Below are positions 1-53,445 of a stretch of 64,000 nt of DNA, in pieces (position 1 is the first letter of the stretch; every line of letters starts with the position of its first letter). The DNA is from a phage. The position numbers and the translations under genes are program-made. Location: assembly GCA_012401045.1 (NCBI GenBank), contig GCA_012401045.1_4704.1, one strand, 5' to 3'. A model generated the notes under the pieces. The model had not been told where the DNA came from and did no database searches. It worked only from the letters and a program-made list of their open reading frames with translations.

Positions 1-1674
1 GTAACGCATTGCCCAGCCGGTTTGTTCCCAGCTACCAGACAGAACACGATCGATGATTTCGTGACGAGCGACAACACGCTGAGACATCGTCATATCGGTA
101 CGGTCGAAGCTGTCTTCCCAAGCTTCTACGGTATCCGGGTTAGTGATGTTCATCATGTACAGATCGTCCATATCACGAATATCGTGACGGTGACCATCCT
201 GGTGGTTGTAGTGACCCAGCGGGATACGGTTACCGGTAGCGTAGACCAGCGGTTGGCCGTATTGATATTTCTTGCTGAAGCAACCCAGGGTAACATCATC
301 GAACGCACGGAAGAGGGCTTTGTAACCTTCGGAGATTTCACGGACTTCACCTTCAACTTTGCCCGTATAGATCTTCTCAGCCGCCGGGATCATACGCAGC
401 AGCCAGCTGTACTCACCTTCTTCCGGTACGTCGATAGAAATCAGCAGAGACGGATACAGTACCTGTTGCAGGAACTTGTAAATCTGCTCGTTGGTTTGAG
501 TAGACAGATCCAGCGGTGCGGTAACTTCCGGATCCAGTACCATCGCCAGAGCACCCGGGTTATGCGGACCAATACCACGGGCAGCGTTGCTGATTAAAGA
601 CTGTGCCCACGCCATACCGCTGTTCAGCGTAGCGATGGTGCCAATCAGACCCAACACGAAAGTGTTCGGTGTGAACGCATCCAGCTCCAGCGGGTAAGCG
701 CTGGTCATCACGTAACGCGGCTGGTATTGTACAGTCGGCGGTACCGGATAACCGTTAACCAGAACAGGGCCTTGGTTGAAGGTCGGGTTCTGCGGGCTGT
801 AAGTCAGGTCAATGTAACCGGTGGTGGCGACCAGACGCTGTTGACTATCGTAATCGCTCATCGCTTGACGGATGCGGTTAGAGATAGTTACAGTGATGTC
901 AGAACGCACAGGGTTACCAACAATATCGCTGTCCTGCATACCGCTGGTGTTGTACTGAACGCTGCTGATTGGCTGATCGCTTGCCATCATGCCCAGGTTG
1001 AACTGCGGCAGACCCAGTTTATCACCGAGACGGATTTCGATCGCGGTTTGGATTGCGTTATCTGCAGCAGACAGCAGGGTGGTTGCCAGATGCGCAGATT
1101 CAGCGGTGATTTCATTGGTCACCACAGCCAGACCAGCGATACGAACAGTACCGTTAGACTTACCGCCAATAGCTGAGTACATTGCCGCCATGACTTCGTT
1201 GATGAACGTACCGTTCAGGTTATCAACCCAGGTACGCGGTACCAGAATGTTACCATGCGGACCTTGTTCTTCACGACGCGGCAGCGGAGCCAGACCAGCA
1301 ACCAGCGGAAGCACATAACCAAAGAAGTGGTTATGGTCACCAACTTTTGCACCACTCATAACGACCAGGGTCGGATACGGTACGCTGTACTGGTTCGGGT
1401 CAACCGCAACAAAGATGAAGTCGTTTTTGAACTGGGTATCTTCCAGATATTTCTCCATCAGACGACGGAGATTCAGTACCTGCTCGGAGCCAGTATTACG
1501 GCTAATACGACGGCTCAGTGTACGGTTGATCGTACGCATCGTATGAGTTACTTTAGGCTGGCCAGCAAAATCTGCAGCGGTTTCCAGCGCCTCATCAGCA
1601 CGTTGTGCGGTGCGGGTTTCAGCTGCACGAATTTCTACATTATCGTTACCGTTATTACGTACGTCTAAGCCCAT
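1..1674 (-). CDS. chmA: Candidate chimallin (phage-nucleus shell protein), N-terminal 558 aa; the C-terminus runs off the window start
   Basis: The minus-strand frame is open from ATG 1674..1672 (SD AGAGGAA 7 nt upstream) to base 1. It is missing from the ORF track because no stop lies in the window. It starts MGLDVRNNGNDNVEIRAAETRTAQRADEALE. Codon bias is extreme (CGT, CTG, GGT, ACC, AAC). A TATATTACC promoter lies upstream and phuZ is ~8 kb away. Identity is inferred from size, expression signals and context, not from a motif. Confidence 0.6.
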   Translation of the reverse strand, partial: MGLDVRNNGNDNVEIRAAETRTAQRADEALETAADFAGQPKVTHTMRTINRTLSRRISRNTGSEQVLNLRRLMEKYLEDTQFKNDFIFVAVDPNQYSVPYPTLVVMSGAKVGDHNHFFGYVLPLVAGLAPLPRREEQGPHGNILVPRTWVDNLNGTFINEVMAAMYSAIGGKSNGTVRIAGLAVVTNEITAESAHLATTLLSAADNAIQTAIEIRLGDKLGLPQFNLGMMASDQPISSVQYNTSGMQDSDIVGNPVRSDITVTISNRIRQAMSDYDSQQRLVATTGYIDLTYSPQNPTFNQGPVLVNGYPVPPTVQYQPRYVMTSAYPLELDAFTPNTFVLGLIGTIATLNSGMAWAQSLISNAARGIGPHNPGALAMVLDPEVTAPLDLSTQTNEQIYKFLQQVLYPSLLISIDVPEEGEYSWLLRMIPAAEKIYTGKVEGEVREISEGYKALFRAFDDVTLGCFSKKYQYGQPLVYATGNRIPLGHYNHQDGHRHDIRDMDDLYMMNITNPDTVEAWEDSFDRTDMTMSQRVVARHEIIDRVLSGSWEQTGWAMRY

Positions 1675-1741
1675 TTGGGATTCCTCTTTTCTTAAACTTT
1701 ATTAAATGACGTCATTGAATCAGCTTCTACTCGCTCATTCA

Positions 1742-1777
1742 CCTAGGTAATATAACCCTGAAATTTTTTTCAATATT
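1742..1777 (-). promoter_or_regulatory. Early-type promoter, copy 1
   Basis: The minus strand reads AATATTGAAAAAAATTTCAGGGTTATATTACCTAGG. The core TATATTACC (1754..1746) is 72 nt upstream of ATG 1674. It aligns position-for-position with the copies at 30706..30741 and 53410..53445. Confidence 0.7.
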
Positions 1778-1928
1778 GGTGTAACCACATTGAACGATAT
1801 AAACCCCTAGGCGAACGCTGCCGAGAAGCAACATTCTTTCTACATATAATCAGGATATGTCTGTAAACTTTTACTTCTCTTATTGAGAGTAAAGTCATAT
1901 CCGTTTACTACCTTCTTACGGAGTTCGT

Positions 1929-3023
1929 ATGTTTCGTGTTTTAAATAACCTCCCGCGAACATCATCGGGTGTGCAGCCCGTCCCTCAGAAAGACTATCTA
2001 ATACGCGAAGTTCAAAGAAACCTACAGACAATCCAGAACCACTATCAAGGTTTTACCTTCGCGGTTCAGAGCGATCACATCCTTGCGTTACTGCTCGCAC
2101 AGCTCCCTATGAGATACGACATCTCAGTACAAACTTACTACGATATGATTCTCGATCTTACTCCAGAATTGGGTAATCGTGTTAAGTTGACAACATCAAG
2201 ATACGCGGGTAAGTTATTCGACGGTGCTTTCTATCCGGGATTGCACGAAGCTATTATCGCAACCGGTGAAAGTCGTCTTATTTCACGTGACGTTCTTGAC
2301 AACTGGCGTAATTGGTCGCCGGTTAGAATCGTGACACACCCATACGCAAATCTTCGTTACATTCCTCTTCACCGAAAGCAGGTTGAAGAAGGACGAGGTT
2401 TTGCGGTCATTATGGTTGATGTACCTTTATTAGCACTACAGTATCGAATGTGGTCTTTGGTCATGGGTCATAACGTCGACGGTAAATGGGTGGTTAAAGA
2501 ACCGGTTACAAGCTTCCTTGCGAGTTTTCCGTTGGTCAACGCATTATATTCACACAACGATGTTGTTATACGCAATCGTTGTTTGTGGGTATCTCCGGCT
2601 AAGAATCCACTCAAATCACCAATTTACGTTAACGACCTTGATAACGTATTCAGCCAAGTCGTTCTGTCCGTACAGCATCATTTATTACGAAGAAGACGAA
2701 GCTACACCGATATGCTTAAACAGATACCGAGTTTATACGGGGATCAGTACCAAGCAACCCGAATGGGTTACACCGTCGATCTTCGACAAACCCGATGGGC
2801 AAGGGATCTGGGCTGTCTGTCGTTATGGCAACAACTCGTCACACTACAAAACGTATCTGAAAGCGTCGGGTTCAGCAGCCAGATCGATAACGACCTGTAC
2901 CGTGCTGCCGACCGTAGTCTAAAAGAAGGTAACTGGGAGTCCTCTCCGTTACCTGGCGATTTAAGACGTGAAGTTATCGCACAGGTTGCCGACCTCTTAA
3001 AAATTCTTCCCGCTGGTGCATAA
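1929..3023 (+). CDS. Hypothetical protein (364 aa)
   Basis: Long ORF with SD GGAG 6 nt before the ATG. No motif recognised. Confidence 0.75.
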   Translation: MFRVLNNLPRTSSGVQPVPQKDYLIREVQRNLQTIQNHYQGFTFAVQSDHILALLLAQLPMRYDISVQTYYDMILDLTPELGNRVKLTTSRYAGKLFDGAFYPGLHEAIIATGESRLISRDVLDNWRNWSPVRIVTHPYANLRYIPLHRKQVEEGRGFAVIMVDVPLLALQYRMWSLVMGHNVDGKWVVKEPVTSFLASFPLVNALYSHNDVVIRNRCLWVSPAKNPLKSPIYVNDLDNVFSQVVLSVQHHLLRRRRSYTDMLKQIPSLYGDQYQATRMGYTVDLRQTRWARDLGCLSLWQQLVTLQNVSESVGFSSQIDNDLYRAADRSLKEGNWESSPLPGDLRREVIAQVADLLKILPAGA

Positions 3024-3042
3024 TAACCTCCCTCCTCCCTTG

Positions 3043-3074
3043 CATCCTCCCAACCCGTAAGGGAAGGGAGGATG
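3043..3074. terminator. Stem-loop between convergent genes (bidirectional terminator candidate)
   Basis: CATCCTCCC (3043..3051) pairs with GGGAGGATG (3066..3074), embedded in a longer C-rich/G-rich inverted repeat. Confidence 0.6.
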
Positions 3075-3089
3075 GGGTGGTGGGTTATG

Positions 3090-5243
3090 TTACTCTGCGG
3101 TTTCTTGCTTCGGTAAATAACTTGCTGCGATGTCTTGGGCTAACAATGTATTGTTTTTATTCGAGATGAAAATACCATAACTTTCCATTAACGCGTAATA
3201 CGAACGCACGAGCGTAGAGATCAATCGACGAATATCCATACCTTGAATAAAGATATCAGGAAGCCCGGAGGCTTCGATCACCGGTAATGGTATCGTTAAG
3301 TTGCTTATCGTTTTCTTATCGTTACGTACAATCCAATCACGGAAACGTTGTTGTAACCCTTTATCCTCCCAGGAATCAATCCAATCGTTAAGAAGCGTTT
3401 TGTTCTTCGTCGCCAACGGCACACGAACCCCAACATAGGGTGGTTCAGGGCAATGGCCGTACGATTGAGCAAACACCTCTTCCCACATATCGTAAGACTG
3501 TTTCGTTACTGCAACATGCGGTTTCACTTTAACACGCGTTAAGAAATCAGGATCACCACGTTTCATAGACTCAACGATTTCGTTTTCTAACGAGATAATA
3601 TCGTCAAGAACCAATCGAATGCTGATCTTCTCGTTACGTAACAGCTTATCCATGATACCACACATCATGCGTTCAACACGTTTGACGATCATTTTTGGTG
3701 CTGACGCATCACGCATAACCGGACCTTTCAATTCCAGCTTCGGTGGATTGATAGGAACCCCCTCACGCATGGTCATGTAACCGTAATAGTTTTTACCCAT
3801 CGAGGTTAACGACAGAATCAAGAACATATATTCGTTCTTCATTTCCATCACGTACATATGCTCTTTCGCCACACCGATATTACCAGAACACATCGCCATC
3901 AGATGAACCGTAATCTGCGTAACCAGATAGATAAGCGTGTTTGCTAAGCGCGTCGAAACTGGATTGATCTCCATATTTCCAAATCGCCACTGAACCCACT
4001 CCTGGCAGGTAAACACCGTCGAGTCGGTATCAGACAACACACCCACTTCACGGATTGCTGATGGGAAAGCATAAACACCAGCCGGTTGGTTCTCGGTACG
4101 CCAGAACGCCATAATCAAATCAGCATAGCTTTGAATACGCTGTAGCATTAATTTTGTCGTTGCTGCAGTAAGACGATAACCAAGCTCATTTCCTTTTTCT
4201 AGCGCTACGTAAATCGCTTCCCCATTCAAGAACTCCGTACATTGTGCTGTAATCCAAGCGACCGTGTTGTTATCCATGGAAGCAATAATGGCTTTAGCCT
4301 CTTCCATCGTTTCAACAGGTTCGGATGCCAGCTCGCATAACGAATCAAGAAAATCTCGAACAAATTCAGGATTAAGCTCACGTAACGAGTACAGGTTATT
4401 GCTGTACATGTAGCAGGCACGTTCCAACGGTGTTAAACCAGTAATTAACTCCCGGATAGTCAGTTCTTTCTCTGGGTCGAAAGTATATCGATGCAAGCAT
4501 TTCGATACGTTAGCCCAAACCTCTTCCGGCGTAGGGTAATGTAGTTTGTATTTTACCATTACCTGTTCAATGGCTTTACGATCGCTGTTGCGGACAATAC
4601 TCACGATGTTTTCAATTGCGATATCACAATCGTAATAATGGAAATTGCCCGCAAGGAAGCGTTCGTTGTTCGCATTGGCTGAACCTGAAGCACAGCGACA
4701 CGTTGTCGTTAAACTTGGATGCGCAATTGGATTATAAAAAGGGTTAAACTTGGACGCCTGGGTTCCTGACAAACTGTTGTTATCTAACTTGGTGTTGGTT
4801 TGTCGTTTATCGTGTAACTCAGCTTCATCTTTACGTCCGTGTGCTTGCGCTATCGACATTTGTTTCTTTTGTTTCTTACGCAACTTACCGTTTTCAACCG
4901 CAAAGTCGCTTAGCACACTGGAACGTGTTTCACGTGGATAACAGTTAGCCCACACCGGCGTGATAATTAAATTATTTTCTTTAATATCATTGAAGTATTG
5001 GCTGAACTTGATGACTTCTTTTTCTCGATTTCCTTCGGTGCGCTGTGTTAATACAAGGCAGTCGGGATCAACCATCCCGTATTTTCCACCAGGACGAACC
5101 GTATCAAGGACAAACTGCAACGCTTCCTGCTGTGATATCCCACGCATGCGCATTAAGAACAGGGTATAATCCTGTACCGCTTCTTTGGTCATATCCAACG
5201 TACGGCCATATCCGTTTTCATCGTAAAAGAACGGATTTTCCAT
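3090..5243 (-). CDS. Large conserved-looking protein with PolB-like palm motifs (possible divergent family-B DNA polymerase catalytic fragment lacking an exonuclease domain)
   Basis: 717 aa with SD GGAGG before the ATG. GVLSDTDSTVF (DTDS at 4031..4020) resembles PolB motif C (YGDTDS). GKNYYGYMTMREG lies 78 aa later and resembles the KKRYA (KxY) motif at PolB-like spacing. Motifs A and B are not convincingly found. Confidence 0.4.
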   Translation of the reverse strand: MENPFFYDENGYGRTLDMTKEAVQDYTLFLMRMRGISQQEALQFVLDTVRPGGKYGMVDPDCLVLTQRTEGNREKEVIKFSQYFNDIKENNLIITPVWANCYPRETRSSVLSDFAVENGKLRKKQKKQMSIAQAHGRKDEAELHDKRQTNTKLDNNSLSGTQASKFNPFYNPIAHPSLTTTCRCASGSANANNERFLAGNFHYYDCDIAIENIVSIVRNSDRKAIEQVMVKYKLHYPTPEEVWANVSKCLHRYTFDPEKELTIRELITGLTPLERACYMYSNNLYSLRELNPEFVRDFLDSLCELASEPVETMEEAKAIIASMDNNTVAWITAQCTEFLNGEAIYVALEKGNELGYRLTAATTKLMLQRIQSYADLIMAFWRTENQPAGVYAFPSAIREVGVLSDTDSTVFTCQEWVQWRFGNMEINPVSTRLANTLIYLVTQITVHLMAMCSGNIGVAKEHMYVMEMKNEYMFLILSLTSMGKNYYGYMTMREGVPINPPKLELKGPVMRDASAPKMIVKRVERMMCGIMDKLLRNEKISIRLVLDDIISLENEIVESMKRGDPDFLTRVKVKPHVAVTKQSYDMWEEVFAQSYGHCPEPPYVGVRVPLATKNKTLLNDWIDSWEDKGLQQRFRDWIVRNDKKTISNLTIPLPVIEASGLPDIFIQGMDIRRLISTLVRSYYALMESYGIFISNKNNTLLAQDIAASYLPKQETAE

Positions 5244-25997: not shown

Positions 25998-28070
25998 ATG
26001 AGGCTTAAGAATAGCACGCCTCGCGCGATTTTTACGGGCTTTAAAGAGGGTCTTACCACGGATCCGGTTACAGCCCCAGAGATCACGCCCATTCACCTCC
26101 CGTATGTTTTCATTCAGGGTGGTCGTGGTAAAGAGGACACCTTGCTGTTAACAGGGGACGCCCTGTCTACAGTCTACGGTGAAGATATGCTGAACTACCG
26201 CAGTAAGTACGCTTCTCCAGCAACACTGATTGCTCGCCAGGCGGCTTCTACAGGTAGCGCGATCTTCACAAAACGTTTGGTTGCGCCGGATGCAACGGCA
26301 GCACGCATCCGTATCGGTGTTGAAGTGGTCGCCGATAAACTGGTCGTTTACCAGCGTAACGCTGACGGGTCCTTTATGAAGGACACCGACGGCAACAAAA
26401 TCCCTGACGGCGATAAAACCGTTGACGGGGTGAAAATGCGTTGGATTGTTAACCACGACAAAGATGCCGTAGCGCCTAACGCCTTCGGTAAAGATGAAGT
26501 GGTTATCGGACAAATGACCGCAGCTGATGGTACCCAGAGCAACTACTATCCTATTCTGGATGGAATGGTGAGCTGGCGTGGTGCCGAAGGGGACAACATC
26601 GGCTTACGTCTGGAAGCACCGACCGCGCTGAGCAGCAACCCTACCCGTACCGATATCATCGAACGTATCGGTGCTTTCCTGTACCGCATTCAGTTCGTGG
26701 AACGTAAGTCTTCACGAACTGCGCCGACGGTCATTCGTACGATCAGCGGTATGGAACAAGAAACCTTCGCGTTGCAGGAAGGTGTTATCCAGCCTGATGA
26801 CGAAACCGATCTGTCCTTCGGTAAAGTGGTCGTTGATGCCTACGAGTATAATGAAACGGGTAACACCCCGATCTTTGCTCCGATGGATCAGATGCATCTT
26901 TATCAGAAGAACATCGATGAAGTCGTCAAGAAGCTGTACGAATCTGAAAGCAAAGTTAACAAAGATCTGTTAACCGACGTTGAATTCGTCGAAGGTCAGA
27001 TGAACATCTTCACCGGTGTCGATTACAACGGCATCCCGTATCAAACCATCGAAGTTCTCGATGCGGATCAGGGCGGCGTCATCTTTGATGGTACCAGCAC
27101 CTTCTACGCAATTGATGGTAGCGACGGTGACGTCGACTGGGATACCTTCGACGCGTTAGCGAAACAGCAGTTCGAATCGTTCGGCAGAATGGGCGAAGAT
27201 CTGGAAGACATGGCTTTCTATCCGTTCTCCATCGTGTATGACATTGGTTACAAAGTCGACACGAAGAAAGCGATGGCAAACGTCTTGTCTCTGCGTCCGG
27301 ATGTCATGATCATTGCGTCAACCCATACCTGGAAGGGTGTGGAACTGAATGTCGATGAAGAAAGCTCCATGGGCGCGATGCTGCGTAACTACTATCGTCT
27401 GCATCCAGAAAGCGTGCTTTACAATACCCCGGCTTGCCGTGCTGCGGTATTCATGCAATACGGTGAAAGCATCGAAGCGCCAAGCCTGGGTAAAGTTCCG
27501 TTGACGCTGGAAGTTGCTAATAAACTTGCAACTTACATGGGTGCTTCGGATGGTGTTATCCGCGGTACCCGCATCGATAACAACCCCGGTAACGTTGTCA
27601 CAACGATGCGTAAAATCAACAAGACGTATCGTAACGCAACGGTCCGCGATCGTGATTGGGAAAACGGCTTGAACTATGTTCAGACCTACAACCGTAATTC
27701 CAACTTCTTCCCGGCTTGGGGCACGATCTACAATAACGACCGTTCGGTATGGCGTTCGTTGATCAACGTGATCATCGGTTGCGATCTGACTCGCGTGTGC
27801 TATCGTCTCTGGGCAGAAACCACCGGTACTACAGGAATGGATGAAACCCTGTTCCTGAAACTGATGGGCGAACGCTTCCTGGAATACACCACGGGCCGTT
27901 ACAACGACCATGTGACTGTTAAGGGACGTTTCTACCTGGATAAAGAAGACGGTTACAACGGCTTCAGCTATCACGGCGATATCAGCCTGATCGGCGATCC
28001 AGGCATGACCGTGGGTACGTTTACCATCACCGGGCTGCGTCGTAACACCGAAGCAGCAGAAGCGGCGTAA
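25998..28070 (+). CDS. Tail sheath protein (inferred)
   Basis: 690 aa with strong codon bias and SD AAGGAGAG. A 296-aa ORF follows 15 nt later. Size and order match phiKZ gp29/gp30 as I remember them. No diagnostic motif recognised. Confidence 0.55.
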   Translation: MRLKNSTPRAIFTGFKEGLTTDPVTAPEITPIHLPYVFIQGGRGKEDTLLLTGDALSTVYGEDMLNYRSKYASPATLIARQAASTGSAIFTKRLVAPDATAARIRIGVEVVADKLVVYQRNADGSFMKDTDGNKIPDGDKTVDGVKMRWIVNHDKDAVAPNAFGKDEVVIGQMTAADGTQSNYYPILDGMVSWRGAEGDNIGLRLEAPTALSSNPTRTDIIERIGAFLYRIQFVERKSSRTAPTVIRTISGMEQETFALQEGVIQPDDETDLSFGKVVVDAYEYNETGNTPIFAPMDQMHLYQKNIDEVVKKLYESESKVNKDLLTDVEFVEGQMNIFTGVDYNGIPYQTIEVLDADQGGVIFDGTSTFYAIDGSDGDVDWDTFDALAKQQFESFGRMGEDLEDMAFYPFSIVYDIGYKVDTKKAMANVLSLRPDVMIIASTHTWKGVELNVDEESSMGAMLRNYYRLHPESVLYNTPACRAAVFMQYGESIEAPSLGKVPLTLEVANKLATYMGASDGVIRGTRIDNNPGNVVTTMRKINKTYRNATVRDRDWENGLNYVQTYNRNSNFFPAWGTIYNNDRSVWRSLINVIIGCDLTRVCYRLWAETTGTTGMDETLFLKLMGERFLEYTTGRYNDHVTVKGRFYLDKEDGYNGFSYHGDISLIGDPGMTVGTFTITGLRRNTEAAEAA

Positions 28071-30107: not shown

Positions 30108-30587
30108 TCAGTCTTTCAGCAGCTCAGCTGCATACGCACTGATGTTGTCGCGAATATGCTTAACCTGAGTTGTTGGGAAAGATTTCTTATACGCGGTGGT
30201 CAGGCGTCCGTAAACCTGTTTCTTCTCGTTAGAGCCGAAACCAACTTCAGCGCTACGTTGAACCGTTGCGGACACAACGTCTTTGCCCAGCGGCAGGGTT
30301 ACAGAAACAACGTCAACCTGCTTGTTATCCGCCATGAACTGCGCGCCAACGCGACCTACCGCCAGACCATGAGCCAGACCGATATCGGTGGTCAGTTTCT
30401 GTGCTTTTTCCAGGATTTCTTTTTCTTCCGGCGTTACCAGAGTACCCAGGAAATCACTGCCTAACTTCTGGCTACCAGATTCGTCCAGTTTAATACCAGC
30501 GGCGATTTTATCAGAAAGAGCCTGAACTTCCGGACGTACGTTAGAAGTGGTTTCAGTCGCTACGGTGGTTTCTACAGCTTCAGACAT
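30108..30587 (-). CDS. Highly expressed early-type protein of unknown function (159 aa, acidic N-terminus)
   Basis: Strong codon bias like the shell gene. It is a monocistronic unit bounded by TATATTACC promoter copy 2 and a terminator. No motif recognised. Confidence 0.8.
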   Translation of the reverse strand: MSEAVETTVATETTSNVRPEVQALSDKIAAGIKLDESGSQKLGSDFLGTLVTPEEKEILEKAQKLTTDIGLAHGLAVGRVGAQFMADNKQVDVVSVTLPLGKDVVSATVQRSAEVGFGSNEKKQVYGRLTTAYKKSFPTTQVKHIRDNISAYAAELLKD

Positions 30588-30705: not shown

Positions 30706-30741
30706 GTTAGGTAATATAGACCTCAACTTTTTTCCAATAAT
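30706..30741 (-). promoter_or_regulatory. Early-type promoter, copy 2
   Basis: The minus strand reads ATTATTGGAAAAAAGTTGAGGTCTATATTACCTAAC. The core (30718..30710) is 123 nt upstream of ATG 30587. The upstream half overlaps the stop of gene 30723..31523. Confidence 0.7.
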
Positions 30742-40345: not shown

Positions 40346-41992
40346 TTAGGCTCCACGAGGTCCCGTTAAGTTGCGTAATAGGAACGCAACCGTATCGTAA
40401 CCAATATCGATGTTGAATTTATTTTTACCACTTACCCAGAAAGCTCGCTTCTTGTGCGAGTTGGTAATTTCGTCAATAGCTTCCATGGAATAAAGAACGT
40501 TAACCGAGACCGTATCACCATCAAAGTCCCCACCAAGTCCGGCGAGGTATGGCGCAGGGACAATAGTCGTTTCTACGAACGAAGCATTAGGTAACCAGTC
40601 GGGGTATTCCCATGCGATAAATCGTTCATCCGTTATTGGTTCCCAGTTACTATCCAGTTCGGTTTTCGGTTTTGCGGCGACGGTTGTACGTGCGTAACAG
40701 GTTAACGGGATAACGGATTGCATACCTGATACCGGATAACGTGTTACCATCGCAGCCAGGTTATTCCAGTACTTATATCCGGCAATATAGATAAGCTCGG
40801 TGTAAGTAATGGGGTGAACATCCGCGCCAGGTTTATTCAACATCTCCGGGGGTAATTCACTCATGCCACGGAATAACCGAAACGAATCGTTGTTCACATA
40901 GACGAGGCAAAGATATCGTCCATTGACCATGATAGGCTCGTTACGCACGCCAGGATCGCTTAAGGTGTTCAGTAAACGTTCTATTCCGTCCCATGTTGTA
41001 AAGTCATCGATGGTGTCTGGATCAAGCGTGACGCGCTCACGTTCCATCGTTTCGGTATCAGTAAGTTCAACTTCTGTAACATCACGGACAAATATTTCCT
41101 GCAAAATACCGGTACGTAACGCATGTTGCGTTACTGGGAGAGCGGCTTTACTCATCTGGTATAACCCTAACTGAACCGCGGTACAGGAAGGCTGGTTAGG
41201 CGACCCTAATACCTCCGTTGTGGGGTTAATTGCCGAAATAACGTTACGGGTTGAGTTCCAAACGCGACGTGAACCAAACTTACCTTGGAAGATCCCTTTC
41301 TTACCCTGGAACATATCCAACAGTAAAGCGTAGATATCGTTGAATGTTCTCTGTAAGCTCCAGCGCTGGCCGTCGTAAACGGGATCGGAATAATCTTTTA
41401 ATCCATCAGGGACGGTGTTAGAAATTGCAAGGAAACGACGATACAACTCCGTGATTTCTTGCTCGCTTTCATACCCACCTTCTTTTACTTCTATTTCACG
41501 TAAGCCTGCAGGCAATACCAGTAAGTGACGGGTCATCGCTTTGAACATGTTCTCTTCGACAACTTTAATTCGTAGCTCTCGTTGAGCTGAACCCGTTGAA
41601 ACGAACTTGATATCCGCGACGTGTTGTGCAAAGAACCCGTATCCTGTTTGTCCTGTTAATGCATCAGACGCAACGAAGTCGCGTTGTTCGGGATCCCACC
41701 GAGCGTACGCCTTCCCCGACATGATATCGCCATAGAGGTGTTTTAATCGAATGAGACGGTCGTAAATGACAGGATGCAGGATTTCAACCTTGCATTCAAT
41801 CACCGCAAATCGACGGTCTCGATCTTCACTACCCGCACTACCAAAGATGGTGTAAGAATAGAAACCATCATCGTGGAAATTACCGGTGCTTGGGTCACGA
41901 ATGCTCATGCTCGTGATCTTGGGGAGAAAACGTAACTGCTGTTTATCGAGGTGTAAAATACTAATATTAAACGGCTCTCTGACTTTAGCCAT
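40346..41992 (-). CDS. Multisubunit RNAP beta' N-terminal fragment (contains the catalytic DFDGD loop)
   Basis: LAGLGGDFDGDTVSVNVL has DFDGD at 40528..40514, 55 aa before the stop. The start is chosen at MAKVREPF (ATG 41992, with AAGAGGAG upstream) rather than the track start at 42034. Confidence 0.8.
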   Translation of the reverse strand: MAKVREPFNISILHLDKQQLRFLPKITSMSIRDPSTGNFHDDGFYSYTIFGSAGSEDRDRRFAVIECKVEILHPVIYDRLIRLKHLYGDIMSGKAYARWDPEQRDFVASDALTGQTGYGFFAQHVADIKFVSTGSAQRELRIKVVEENMFKAMTRHLLVLPAGLREIEVKEGGYESEQEITELYRRFLAISNTVPDGLKDYSDPVYDGQRWSLQRTFNDIYALLLDMFQGKKGIFQGKFGSRRVWNSTRNVISAINPTTEVLGSPNQPSCTAVQLGLYQMSKAALPVTQHALRTGILQEIFVRDVTEVELTDTETMERERVTLDPDTIDDFTTWDGIERLLNTLSDPGVRNEPIMVNGRYLCLVYVNNDSFRLFRGMSELPPEMLNKPGADVHPITYTELIYIAGYKYWNNLAAMVTRYPVSGMQSVIPLTCYARTTVAAKPKTELDSNWEPITDERFIAWEYPDWLPNASFVETTIVPAPYLAGLGGDFDGDTVSVNVLYSMEAIDEITNSHKKRAFWVSGKNKFNIDIGYDTVAFLLRNLTGPRGA

Positions 41993-42237
41993 GGAGACAC
42001 TCCTCTTTACCACCACCGGCTGCGGCGGTATCATCTGAACACACGAGAGACGTAATGGGTGATGGCGTCACCCATCGCTTCCTTGCTTGAGGCGAGGAAG
42101 TTATTAGGTTACGTACCTGCCTGATTTTATCAGGTGGGCGATGTGTGAAGTTACGCTTCAACATTATCAATGCCGAAGGTAAACTTCGTGCATCACGTTC
42201 CAACGTAACATGGGAACGTATCGAACTGGAGGTATAC

Positions 42238-53409: not shown

Positions 53410-53445
53410 TGAAGGTAATATAGTCCTGTTATTTTTTTCAATACG
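53410..53445 (-). promoter_or_regulatory. Early-type promoter, copy 3
   Basis: The minus strand reads CGTATTGAAAAAAATAACAGGACTATATTACCTTCA, with the core at 53422..53414. Confidence 0.7.

Follow-up and report, generated by a model that had tools for sequence, protein, structure and literature searches.

A Goslar-type chimallin gene cut by the edge of a stretch of phage DNA, and the conserved promoter-like element upstream of it

Which protein is encoded by the long frame that runs off the first base of a stretch of phage contig GCA_012401045.1_4704.1, and how might it be expressed? A preliminary description of this DNA, made from the letters alone, had singled out the minus strand of the first 1,674 positions as the best candidate for chimallin (ChmA), the major shell protein of the phage nucleus. 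We have followed up this proposal on a stretch of 64,000 nucleotides (nt) of the contig, which is referred to below as the window. Positions 1..1674, read on the minus strand, almost certainly encode the first 558 of the 631 residues of ChmA in a close, hitherto unsampled relative of phage Goslar (genus Goslarvirus, Chimalliviridae); a probable mode of expression is set out below. The gene is a member of an already known family, nothing new in kind, and its product is nearly the same protein as Goslar ChmA.

Identity of the frame at the window edge

As had been described, the minus strand is open for 558 sense codons, without a stop, from an ATG at 1674 to base 1, and the frame runs past the window edge. 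The program-made list of open reading frames (ORFs) shows only short ones in this interval, four on the plus strand (22..597, 727..1176, 989..1318, and 1255..1668) and one on the minus strand (153..356). The 558-codon frame is absent from that list because the list leaves out ORFs running off an end. When the five short ORFs were searched against PHROG, no family match was found, and we have treated these opposite-strand and nested ORFs as shadows of the strongly biased chmA frame.

The sequence search that the preliminary description had called for gave a clear answer in favor of chimallin. A phmmer search of the translation against all PDB chains finds 7sqt_A, “Chimallin,” with an E-value of 0 (1257 bits). 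The alignment is gapless, residues 1-558 of the query pairing with residues 4-561 of the chain, and 552 of the 558 residues are the same as in Goslar chimallin (98.9% identity). Weaker significant matches are PhuN from phiPA3 (8fne, 2.7e-15) and a second PDB chimallin sequence (7sqq, 2.5e-8). As for the profile databases, residues 20-517 reach 73 bits with the Pfam family PF25677 (Chimallin_Phikzvirus, “Phikzvirus chimallin family”), for which the gathering threshold is 27, and residues 18-558 match PHROG 4795, “nuclear shell protein,” at 1.3e-44.

When positions 1-3000 of the window were compared with a phage collection, the sole match was Escherichia phage vB_EcoM_Goslar, at 98.5% nt identity. 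The counterpart in that genome is annotated as “nuclear shell protein” (HOV27_gp246, YP_009820873.1), a product of 631 residues encoded at 171003..172898 on the minus strand. This protein is gp189 in the numbering of the literature and is the one used for the cryo-electron microscopy (cryo-EM) structure of the shell (PMC9365700). The name “Goslar gp189,” under which the preliminary description had listed it, therefore agrees with the literature, HOV27_gp246 being the RefSeq locus tag. The two genes differ at 20 nt, which amount to 13 synonymous and six non-synonymous codon changes, the latter producing the substitutions R81Q, D84N, A167S, A177V, Y455F, and L474Q. Residues 1-80, which comprise the N-terminal tail and the N-terminal segment (NTS), are the same in both proteins, and the two-domain core aligns without gaps.

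For a wider comparison, the window was set beside nine Goslar-type relatives, i.e., Goslar itself, two further IMG/VR contigs, and six ENA/Logan/NCBI contigs retrieved via the exact product of the neighboring gene (window 1929..3023). All ten-genome figures given here refer to this sample. None of the nine relatives, including these six contigs, is identical to the window, and the D84N substitution is unique to it (0/9 relatives). Searches of complete E. coli genomes and of the GTDB species genomes gave no match to the window, and an exact 40-mer across the D84N codon was not found in JGI metagenomes. Of the 136 segregating sites in chmA, 107 are third codon positions when the minus strand is read; the variation is purely synonymous in 97 codons and alters the amino acid in 24. 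The 558-codon minus-strand frame is the frame under selection and, as judged by this pattern of codon changes, chmA is shown to be under strong purifying selection.

Since the window begins 222 nt within chmA (base 1 corresponds to Goslar 171225), residues 559-631 are missing, the last 73 codons and the stop lying beyond the edge. The missing part includes the tails CTS1 and CTS2, which are residues 590-611 and 622-631 in the numbering of 201phi2-1 and are required for self-assembly in vitro (PMC9365700). In 9/9 relatives, the equivalent position is occupied by a Chimallin-family gene of 631 codons for which the last 73 residues show few substitutions at most, and a single gene of this family is present at every Goslar-type locus examined. 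The full-length size foreseen for a chimallin is thus what the relatives show, whereas 558 codons are what can be seen for the window genome.

The frame also stands out by its codon usage, as had been noticed from the letters. Among the 53 non-overlapping ORFs of at least 100 residues in the window, none has a smaller effective number of codons than chmA (Nc 34.7), and none a larger share of CGT, CTG, GGT, ACC, AAC, and ATC within their codon families (0.768, the next highest being 0.661). That these six codons are used almost exclusively was, however, true in part. It holds for CGT (31/33), CTG (40/47), and AAC (28/33), and it was overstated for GGT (30/40), ATC (22/33), and ACC (24/42). The Shine-Dalgarno sequence, correctly described as good, is AGAGGA and is unchanged in 10/10 genomes.

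Upstream signals and competing explanations

Upstream of chmA lies the motif TATATTACC, which the preliminary description had presented as a conserved promoter. It has five copies in the window against 0.44 expected, with 5/5 on the minus strand. Three of the copies (1754, 30718, and 53422) are intergenic and have a longer element in common, ATTGaAAAAAa-N4-AGG-N2-TATATTACC. This extended 29-mer has three matches in the window where none is expected, and the promoter-like family is likewise present in three copies versus 0.05 expected. Its subclass with the A-tract ATTGAAAAAAA is found at 1745..1774, 30709..30738, and 53413..53442, all on the minus strand, preceding chmA and two small ORFs. The remaining two copies of TATATTACC are without the extended element and apparently lie within ORFs, one of them with no downstream ORF within 300 nt.

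The element of chmA is a perfect match to a Goslar-wide consensus, TTTCASGGYTATATTACYT, with the A-tract ahead of it. In the complete Goslar genome, this consensus has 12 matches at three mismatches or fewer, as compared with 0.25 in shuffled sequences. All 12 are on the main coding (minus) strand, each 29-209 nt upstream of an ORF, and the consensus is usually followed by nnnTGA. The whole-genome scan of Goslar was preferred to a scan of IMG/VR with the loosened motif TTGRAAAAA-N11-TATATTAC, which was dropped and which had returned only single, apparently chance matches in unrelated contigs. A full-text search of the literature for TATATTAC brought up irrelevant papers only.

The coordinates of chmA, of its upstream signals, and of phuZ are collected in Table 1.

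Table 1. Coordinates of chmA, its upstream signals, and phuZ in the window
Feature	Position	Strand	Basis
chmA (chimallin), first 558 of 631 expected codons	1..1674	-	PDB 7SQT, PF25677, PHROG 4795, Goslar synteny
Shine-Dalgarno AGAGGA, 8 nt before ATG 1674	1682..1687	-	read from sequence
Putative 5' leader between promoter-like motif and ATG	1675..1745	-	distance from motif; unchanged in 10 genomes
Promoter-like element ATTGAAAAAAA-TTTCAGGGT-TATATTACC-T, core TATATTACC 1754..1746	1745..1774	-	motif statistics
Intergenic region between chmA and divergent gene 1929..3023, 254 nt	1675..1928	.	ten-genome alignment
phuZ (phage tubulin)	9632..10612	-	PDB matches, Goslar annotation “tubulin PhuZ”

The leader of 72 nt that had been reported for chmA stands as the distance between motif and ATG, counted from position 1746, where the motif ends, to 1675, and not as a mapped leader. 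Within this putative leader, AATGACGTCATT at 1716..1705 forms a perfect palindrome of 12 nt. The predicted fold of the leader RNA is not significant (minimum free energy -17.1 kcal/mol, z = -1.6), 12 of 200 shuffled sequences folding equally well. As a whole, the intergenic region shows much stronger conservation than the coding DNA on either side, with four segregating sites in 254 nt among the ten genomes as compared with 107 in 558 third positions of chmA (Fisher p = 1.4e-14); the divergent gene at 1929..3023 has 78 in 1095 nt. Between the window and Goslar, the promoter-like motif, the leader, and the Shine-Dalgarno sequence are the same over the 236 nt aligned, a single base differing outside these elements.

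A second ORF combines strong codon bias with the same type of element. ORF 30108..30587 (minus strand, 159 residues) belongs to PHROG 9746, a family of unknown function, and corresponds to Goslar gp214. Its bias is the second strongest (Nc 35.6, preferred-codon fraction 0.661) and the A-tract promoter subclass of chmA lies 121 nt upstream of it. Its product may, like ChmA, be made early and in very large amounts.

What class of promoter this would be can be approached by comparison with better-studied phages. In jumbo phages that encode RNA polymerase (RNAP), a phage-specific conserved AT-rich motif of ~10 nt is found near -10 of early genes and is presumably read by the injected virion RNAP (PMC7598289). 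For the later classes of phiKZ, a weak AT-rich motif at -24 is described at middle promoters and no more than TATG at late ones (PMC7598289). In phiKZ, the early motif was found upstream of 32 transcription starts (PMC8244752). The Goslar-type motif resembles the early promoters of phiKZ and AR9 in its AT-rich core of ~10 nt, in being strand-specific, and in lying upstream of operons. It differs from them in that its sequence, TTTCAsGGyTATATTACyT, is specific to Goslar-type phages. Moreover, an A-tract lies upstream of the chmA copy, while a T-rich element is found upstream of -19 in phiKZ. The phiKZ gene PHIKZ054 (gp54) is equated with that of the phiKZ chimallin by the preliminary description and not by the study that mapped its promoters. 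The primary start of PHIKZ054 carries the early motif, and the gene has a second promoter, of the middle type (PMC8244752). By analogy with these systems, the TATATTACC family is most likely an early promoter for the virion RNAP. If so, transcription of chmA would start at TATATTACC or a short way downstream, and the injected virion RNAP would drive the gene very early in infection. The E. coli-optimized codons and the good Shine-Dalgarno sequence would then favor translation at a very high level, carried out in the cytoplasm by the ribosomes of the host.

How firmly does this reading stand against other explanations? Size and codon bias by themselves fit any highly expressed structural gene, and the ORF of the tail sheath (25998..28067) is also markedly biased (Nc 41.0), which would leave room for the product to be some other structural protein made in large amounts, such as major capsid or tail sheath, or else a chimallin paralogue outside the shell. 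Yet the best matches are to chimallin or PhuN exclusively, both Pfam and PHROG name chimallin, Goslar has its major head protein and tail sheath annotated at other loci, and each Goslar-type locus examined has one Chimallin-family gene, at the position of chmA. The reading of 1..1674 as a structural protein or paralogue is refuted by the PDB, Pfam, and PHROG matches, and we give it virtually no chance. The findings that the preliminary description had named as fatal to its proposal, i.e., a lack of similarity to chimallins, a best match to capsid or sheath, and a wrong size, were not encountered. It is, on the other hand, conceivable that chmA is truncated, frameshifted, or fused beyond the edge and yields no functional full-length ChmA, as residues 559-631 with the assembly tails are outside the window. 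This we hold to be very improbable, given the uniform length and the nearly invariant C-terminus of the nine relatives and the clear purifying selection on the 558 codons in view. To this may be added that ChmA is reported as essential, upon knock-down by the Cas13-based CRISPRi-ART (PMC10541120).

The class of the promoter is the part of the reading that is most exposed. Instead of an early virion-RNAP promoter, TATATTACC might mark a middle or late promoter used by the non-virion RNAP, a host sigma-70 promoter, or the binding site of a regulator. The middle-type promoter of PHIKZ054 and the palindrome in the leader, which could bind a protein, can be read in this sense. What speaks for an early promoter instead is that 12/12 Goslar copies are on the coding strand upstream of ORFs, that the conserved AT-rich shape of ~10 nt fits the early promoters described in RNAP-encoding jumbo phages, and that the late and middle consensus sequences of phiKZ are described differently (PMC7598289). 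In addition, a scan of 1..3100 for sigma-70 promoters and terminators gave three promoter-like sites versus 4.1 expected, with none in the intergenic region upstream of chmA. We consider these other promoter classes, taken together, unlikely, while keeping them in view. Several points do weigh against the reading that we prefer. Our literature search found no data on transcription starts or timing in Goslar, which concerns both the promoter class and the 72-nt leader. There are only 12 strong copies of the motif in the 237 kb of Goslar as compared with 32 starts in phiKZ, so that the motif may belong to some of the early promoters only, or to promoters of another class. Since the entire intergenic region is conserved, footprinting cannot single out the motif. 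Finally, the intact C-terminus of ChmA in the window genome, 73 codons beyond the window, is something that we infer from the relatives. With these points taken into account, ChmA of a Goslar-type phage, most likely expressed from an early promoter, is the reading that we retain.

Genome context, a group I intron, and a possible second insertion

Over its entire length, the window aligns in the same order with Goslar 171225..237273, at 97.3-97.6% nt identity and with one large gap. It thus comes from a Goslar-type genome (Goslarvirus, Chimalliviridae), the fourth or a later one, that is absent from the collections searched. The window ends at Goslar 237273 of 237307, i.e., 34 bp before the end of the record. 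Within this collinear stretch, chmA adjoins the divergent gene at 1929..3023 (PHROG 3938, 364-residue product), which is followed by a divergent family B DNA polymerase at 3090..5243 (divDNApol, 682 bits). As in Goslar, for which the structures of ChmA are PDB 7SQT, 7SQU, and 7SQV, chmA has its position and orientation between a gene for an RNAP subunit and the divergent gene that precedes the DNA polymerase gene. Genes for terminase, tail sheath, and RNAP subunits are found farther along the window.

The tubulin gene phuZ is on the same strand as chmA, 7,957 nt from its ATG, in agreement with the distance of about 8 kb given in the preliminary description. Its product matches PDB entries 9pm9 (“Tubulin/FtsZ GTPase domain-containing protein,” 4e-220), 3zbp (phiKZ PhuZ, PHIKZ039, 7.8e-29), and 3j5v (201phi2-1 PhuZ, 6.6e-15), and the Pfam family Tubulin scores 29.9 bits, slightly below the cut-off of 33. 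The window thus presents a Chimalliviridae context, in which PhuZ, split multisubunit RNAP genes, a divergent family B DNA polymerase, and an RNAP beta-prime-like ORF with DFDGD are all found. A search of the whole window with Rfam at gathering thresholds, together with a tRNA scan, gave no match.

The one large gap in the alignment is there because Goslar carries an intron of 2,044 nt in an RNAP gene. In the window, the RNAP beta-prime-like ORF 40346..42034 (minus strand, 562 residues) is uninterrupted and reads GLGGDFDGDTVS, including the universal catalytic motif GGDFDGD. The codons of this motif, which mark the junction, are at 40528..40514. In Goslar (NC_048170), the same motif is split by a group I intron at 213797..211754, which scores 67.7 bits with Rfam RF00028; T is the last base of the 5' exon, and G that of the intron. 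The intron holds an ORF of 491 residues, gp206, described as “similar to phiKZ ORF179.” When the Goslar gene is spliced in silico, a product of 562 residues is restored that is two residues off the window ORF, and the annotated Goslar gp205 (502 residues) is therefore without the second exon. As judged from this alignment, the window phage carries a natural intron-less allele of the RNAP gene.

There may be another such site beside chmA, outside the window. In Goslar, the gene just downstream of chmA is annotated as that of an RNAP subunit, and behind it the annotation places an Intron_gpI feature and a gene for an HNH endonuclease. In the relatives (loci L007-L012, ~2.1-3.8 kb), this gene is uninterrupted in some, with 434 or 449 residues, while in others a 423-residue gene is accompanied by either an HNH_3 ORF of 336 residues or a remnant of 46 residues. 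This distribution suggests a second insertion of a mobile intron or homing endonuclease, present in some genomes and absent in others.

As for how widespread these phages are, an index of public assemblies has 46 blocks that contain the exact 364-residue protein encoded at window 1929..3023. Goslar-type contigs of ~239 kb come from ENA metagenomes, and NCBI GCA_958338305.1 is a further case. Goslar-type phages are common in public data.

Shell function, allelic variation, and significance

What the window protein would do can be described from its orthologues. The chimallin of 201phi2-1 has extended tails and a core of two domains, in which an alpha/beta domain at the N-terminal side is followed by a GNAT-like C-terminal domain (PMC9365700). 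Chimallin tetramers self-assemble into a flexible square lattice, in which the NTS docks on a neighbor inside the tetramer while CTS1 and CTS2 reach into adjacent tetramers (PMC9365700). The shell so formed surrounds the phage DNA as it replicates, and its pores of ~1.4 nm exclude folded proteins such as host nucleases while allowing the exchange of metabolites and possibly the exit of mRNA (PMC9365700). The Goslar shell and its chimallin lattice have themselves been studied by cryo-electron tomography and cryo-EM, and the Goslar protomer superposes on that of 201phi2-1 with a root-mean-square deviation of 1.8 Å, both proteins having a tail-mediated lattice (PMC9365700). The fusion to green fluorescent protein (GFP) that the preliminary description had put forward as a test has already been made with the Goslar orthologue. 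GFP-ChmA (gp189) is diffuse in uninfected cells and was imaged in Goslar-infected E. coli, in which Goslar forms a phage nucleus (PMC9891218). By analogy with this orthologue, the window ChmA would be expected to build a shell around the phage DNA in infected cells.

The more distant members of the family are 201phi2-1 gp105, its founder, phiKZ gp54, and phiPA3 gp53/PhuN, which are alike in belonging to the profile family PF25677/PHROG 4795. The overall identity between 201phi2-1 gp105 and Goslar ChmA is 19.3%, and the CTS2 of Goslar is shorter than that of 201phi2-1 and makes other contacts (PMC9365700). The systems also differ in that the host of Goslar is E. coli and not Pseudomonas, and in that Goslar PhuZ forms a vortex instead of a bipolar spindle (PMC9891218).

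The ten Goslar-type alleles allow the variation within ChmA to be located. Amino-acid variation is clustered (permutation p = 0.0024), with six variable residues versus one synonymous-only codon in residues 76-90 and five versus three in residues 436-445; the long segment in between, residues 91-435, has four versus 76. The D84N substitution of the window falls in the first patch. The patches occur as haplotype blocks and therefore represent few independent events. It might be imagined that both patches are under diversifying selection, for example by host factors that recognize the shell or by co-evolving shell partners, and that the 254-nt region and its palindrome form a regulatory element beyond a simple promoter, a combined proposal that we regard as improbable.

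As a discovery, the identification of this gene carries little weight, Goslar ChmA being one of the two best-characterized shell proteins of the phage nucleus. Its value is rather one of calibration, a shell protein having been correctly picked from raw sequence by its size, codon optimization, promoter motif, and proximity to phuZ. The by-products bear on Goslar-type phages more generally. A promoter-like consensus is defined for this group, and the intron-less allele fixes the boundaries of the Goslar group I intron in the DFDGD motif of the RNAP. Together, the ten genomes provide a first view of allelic variation in ChmA.

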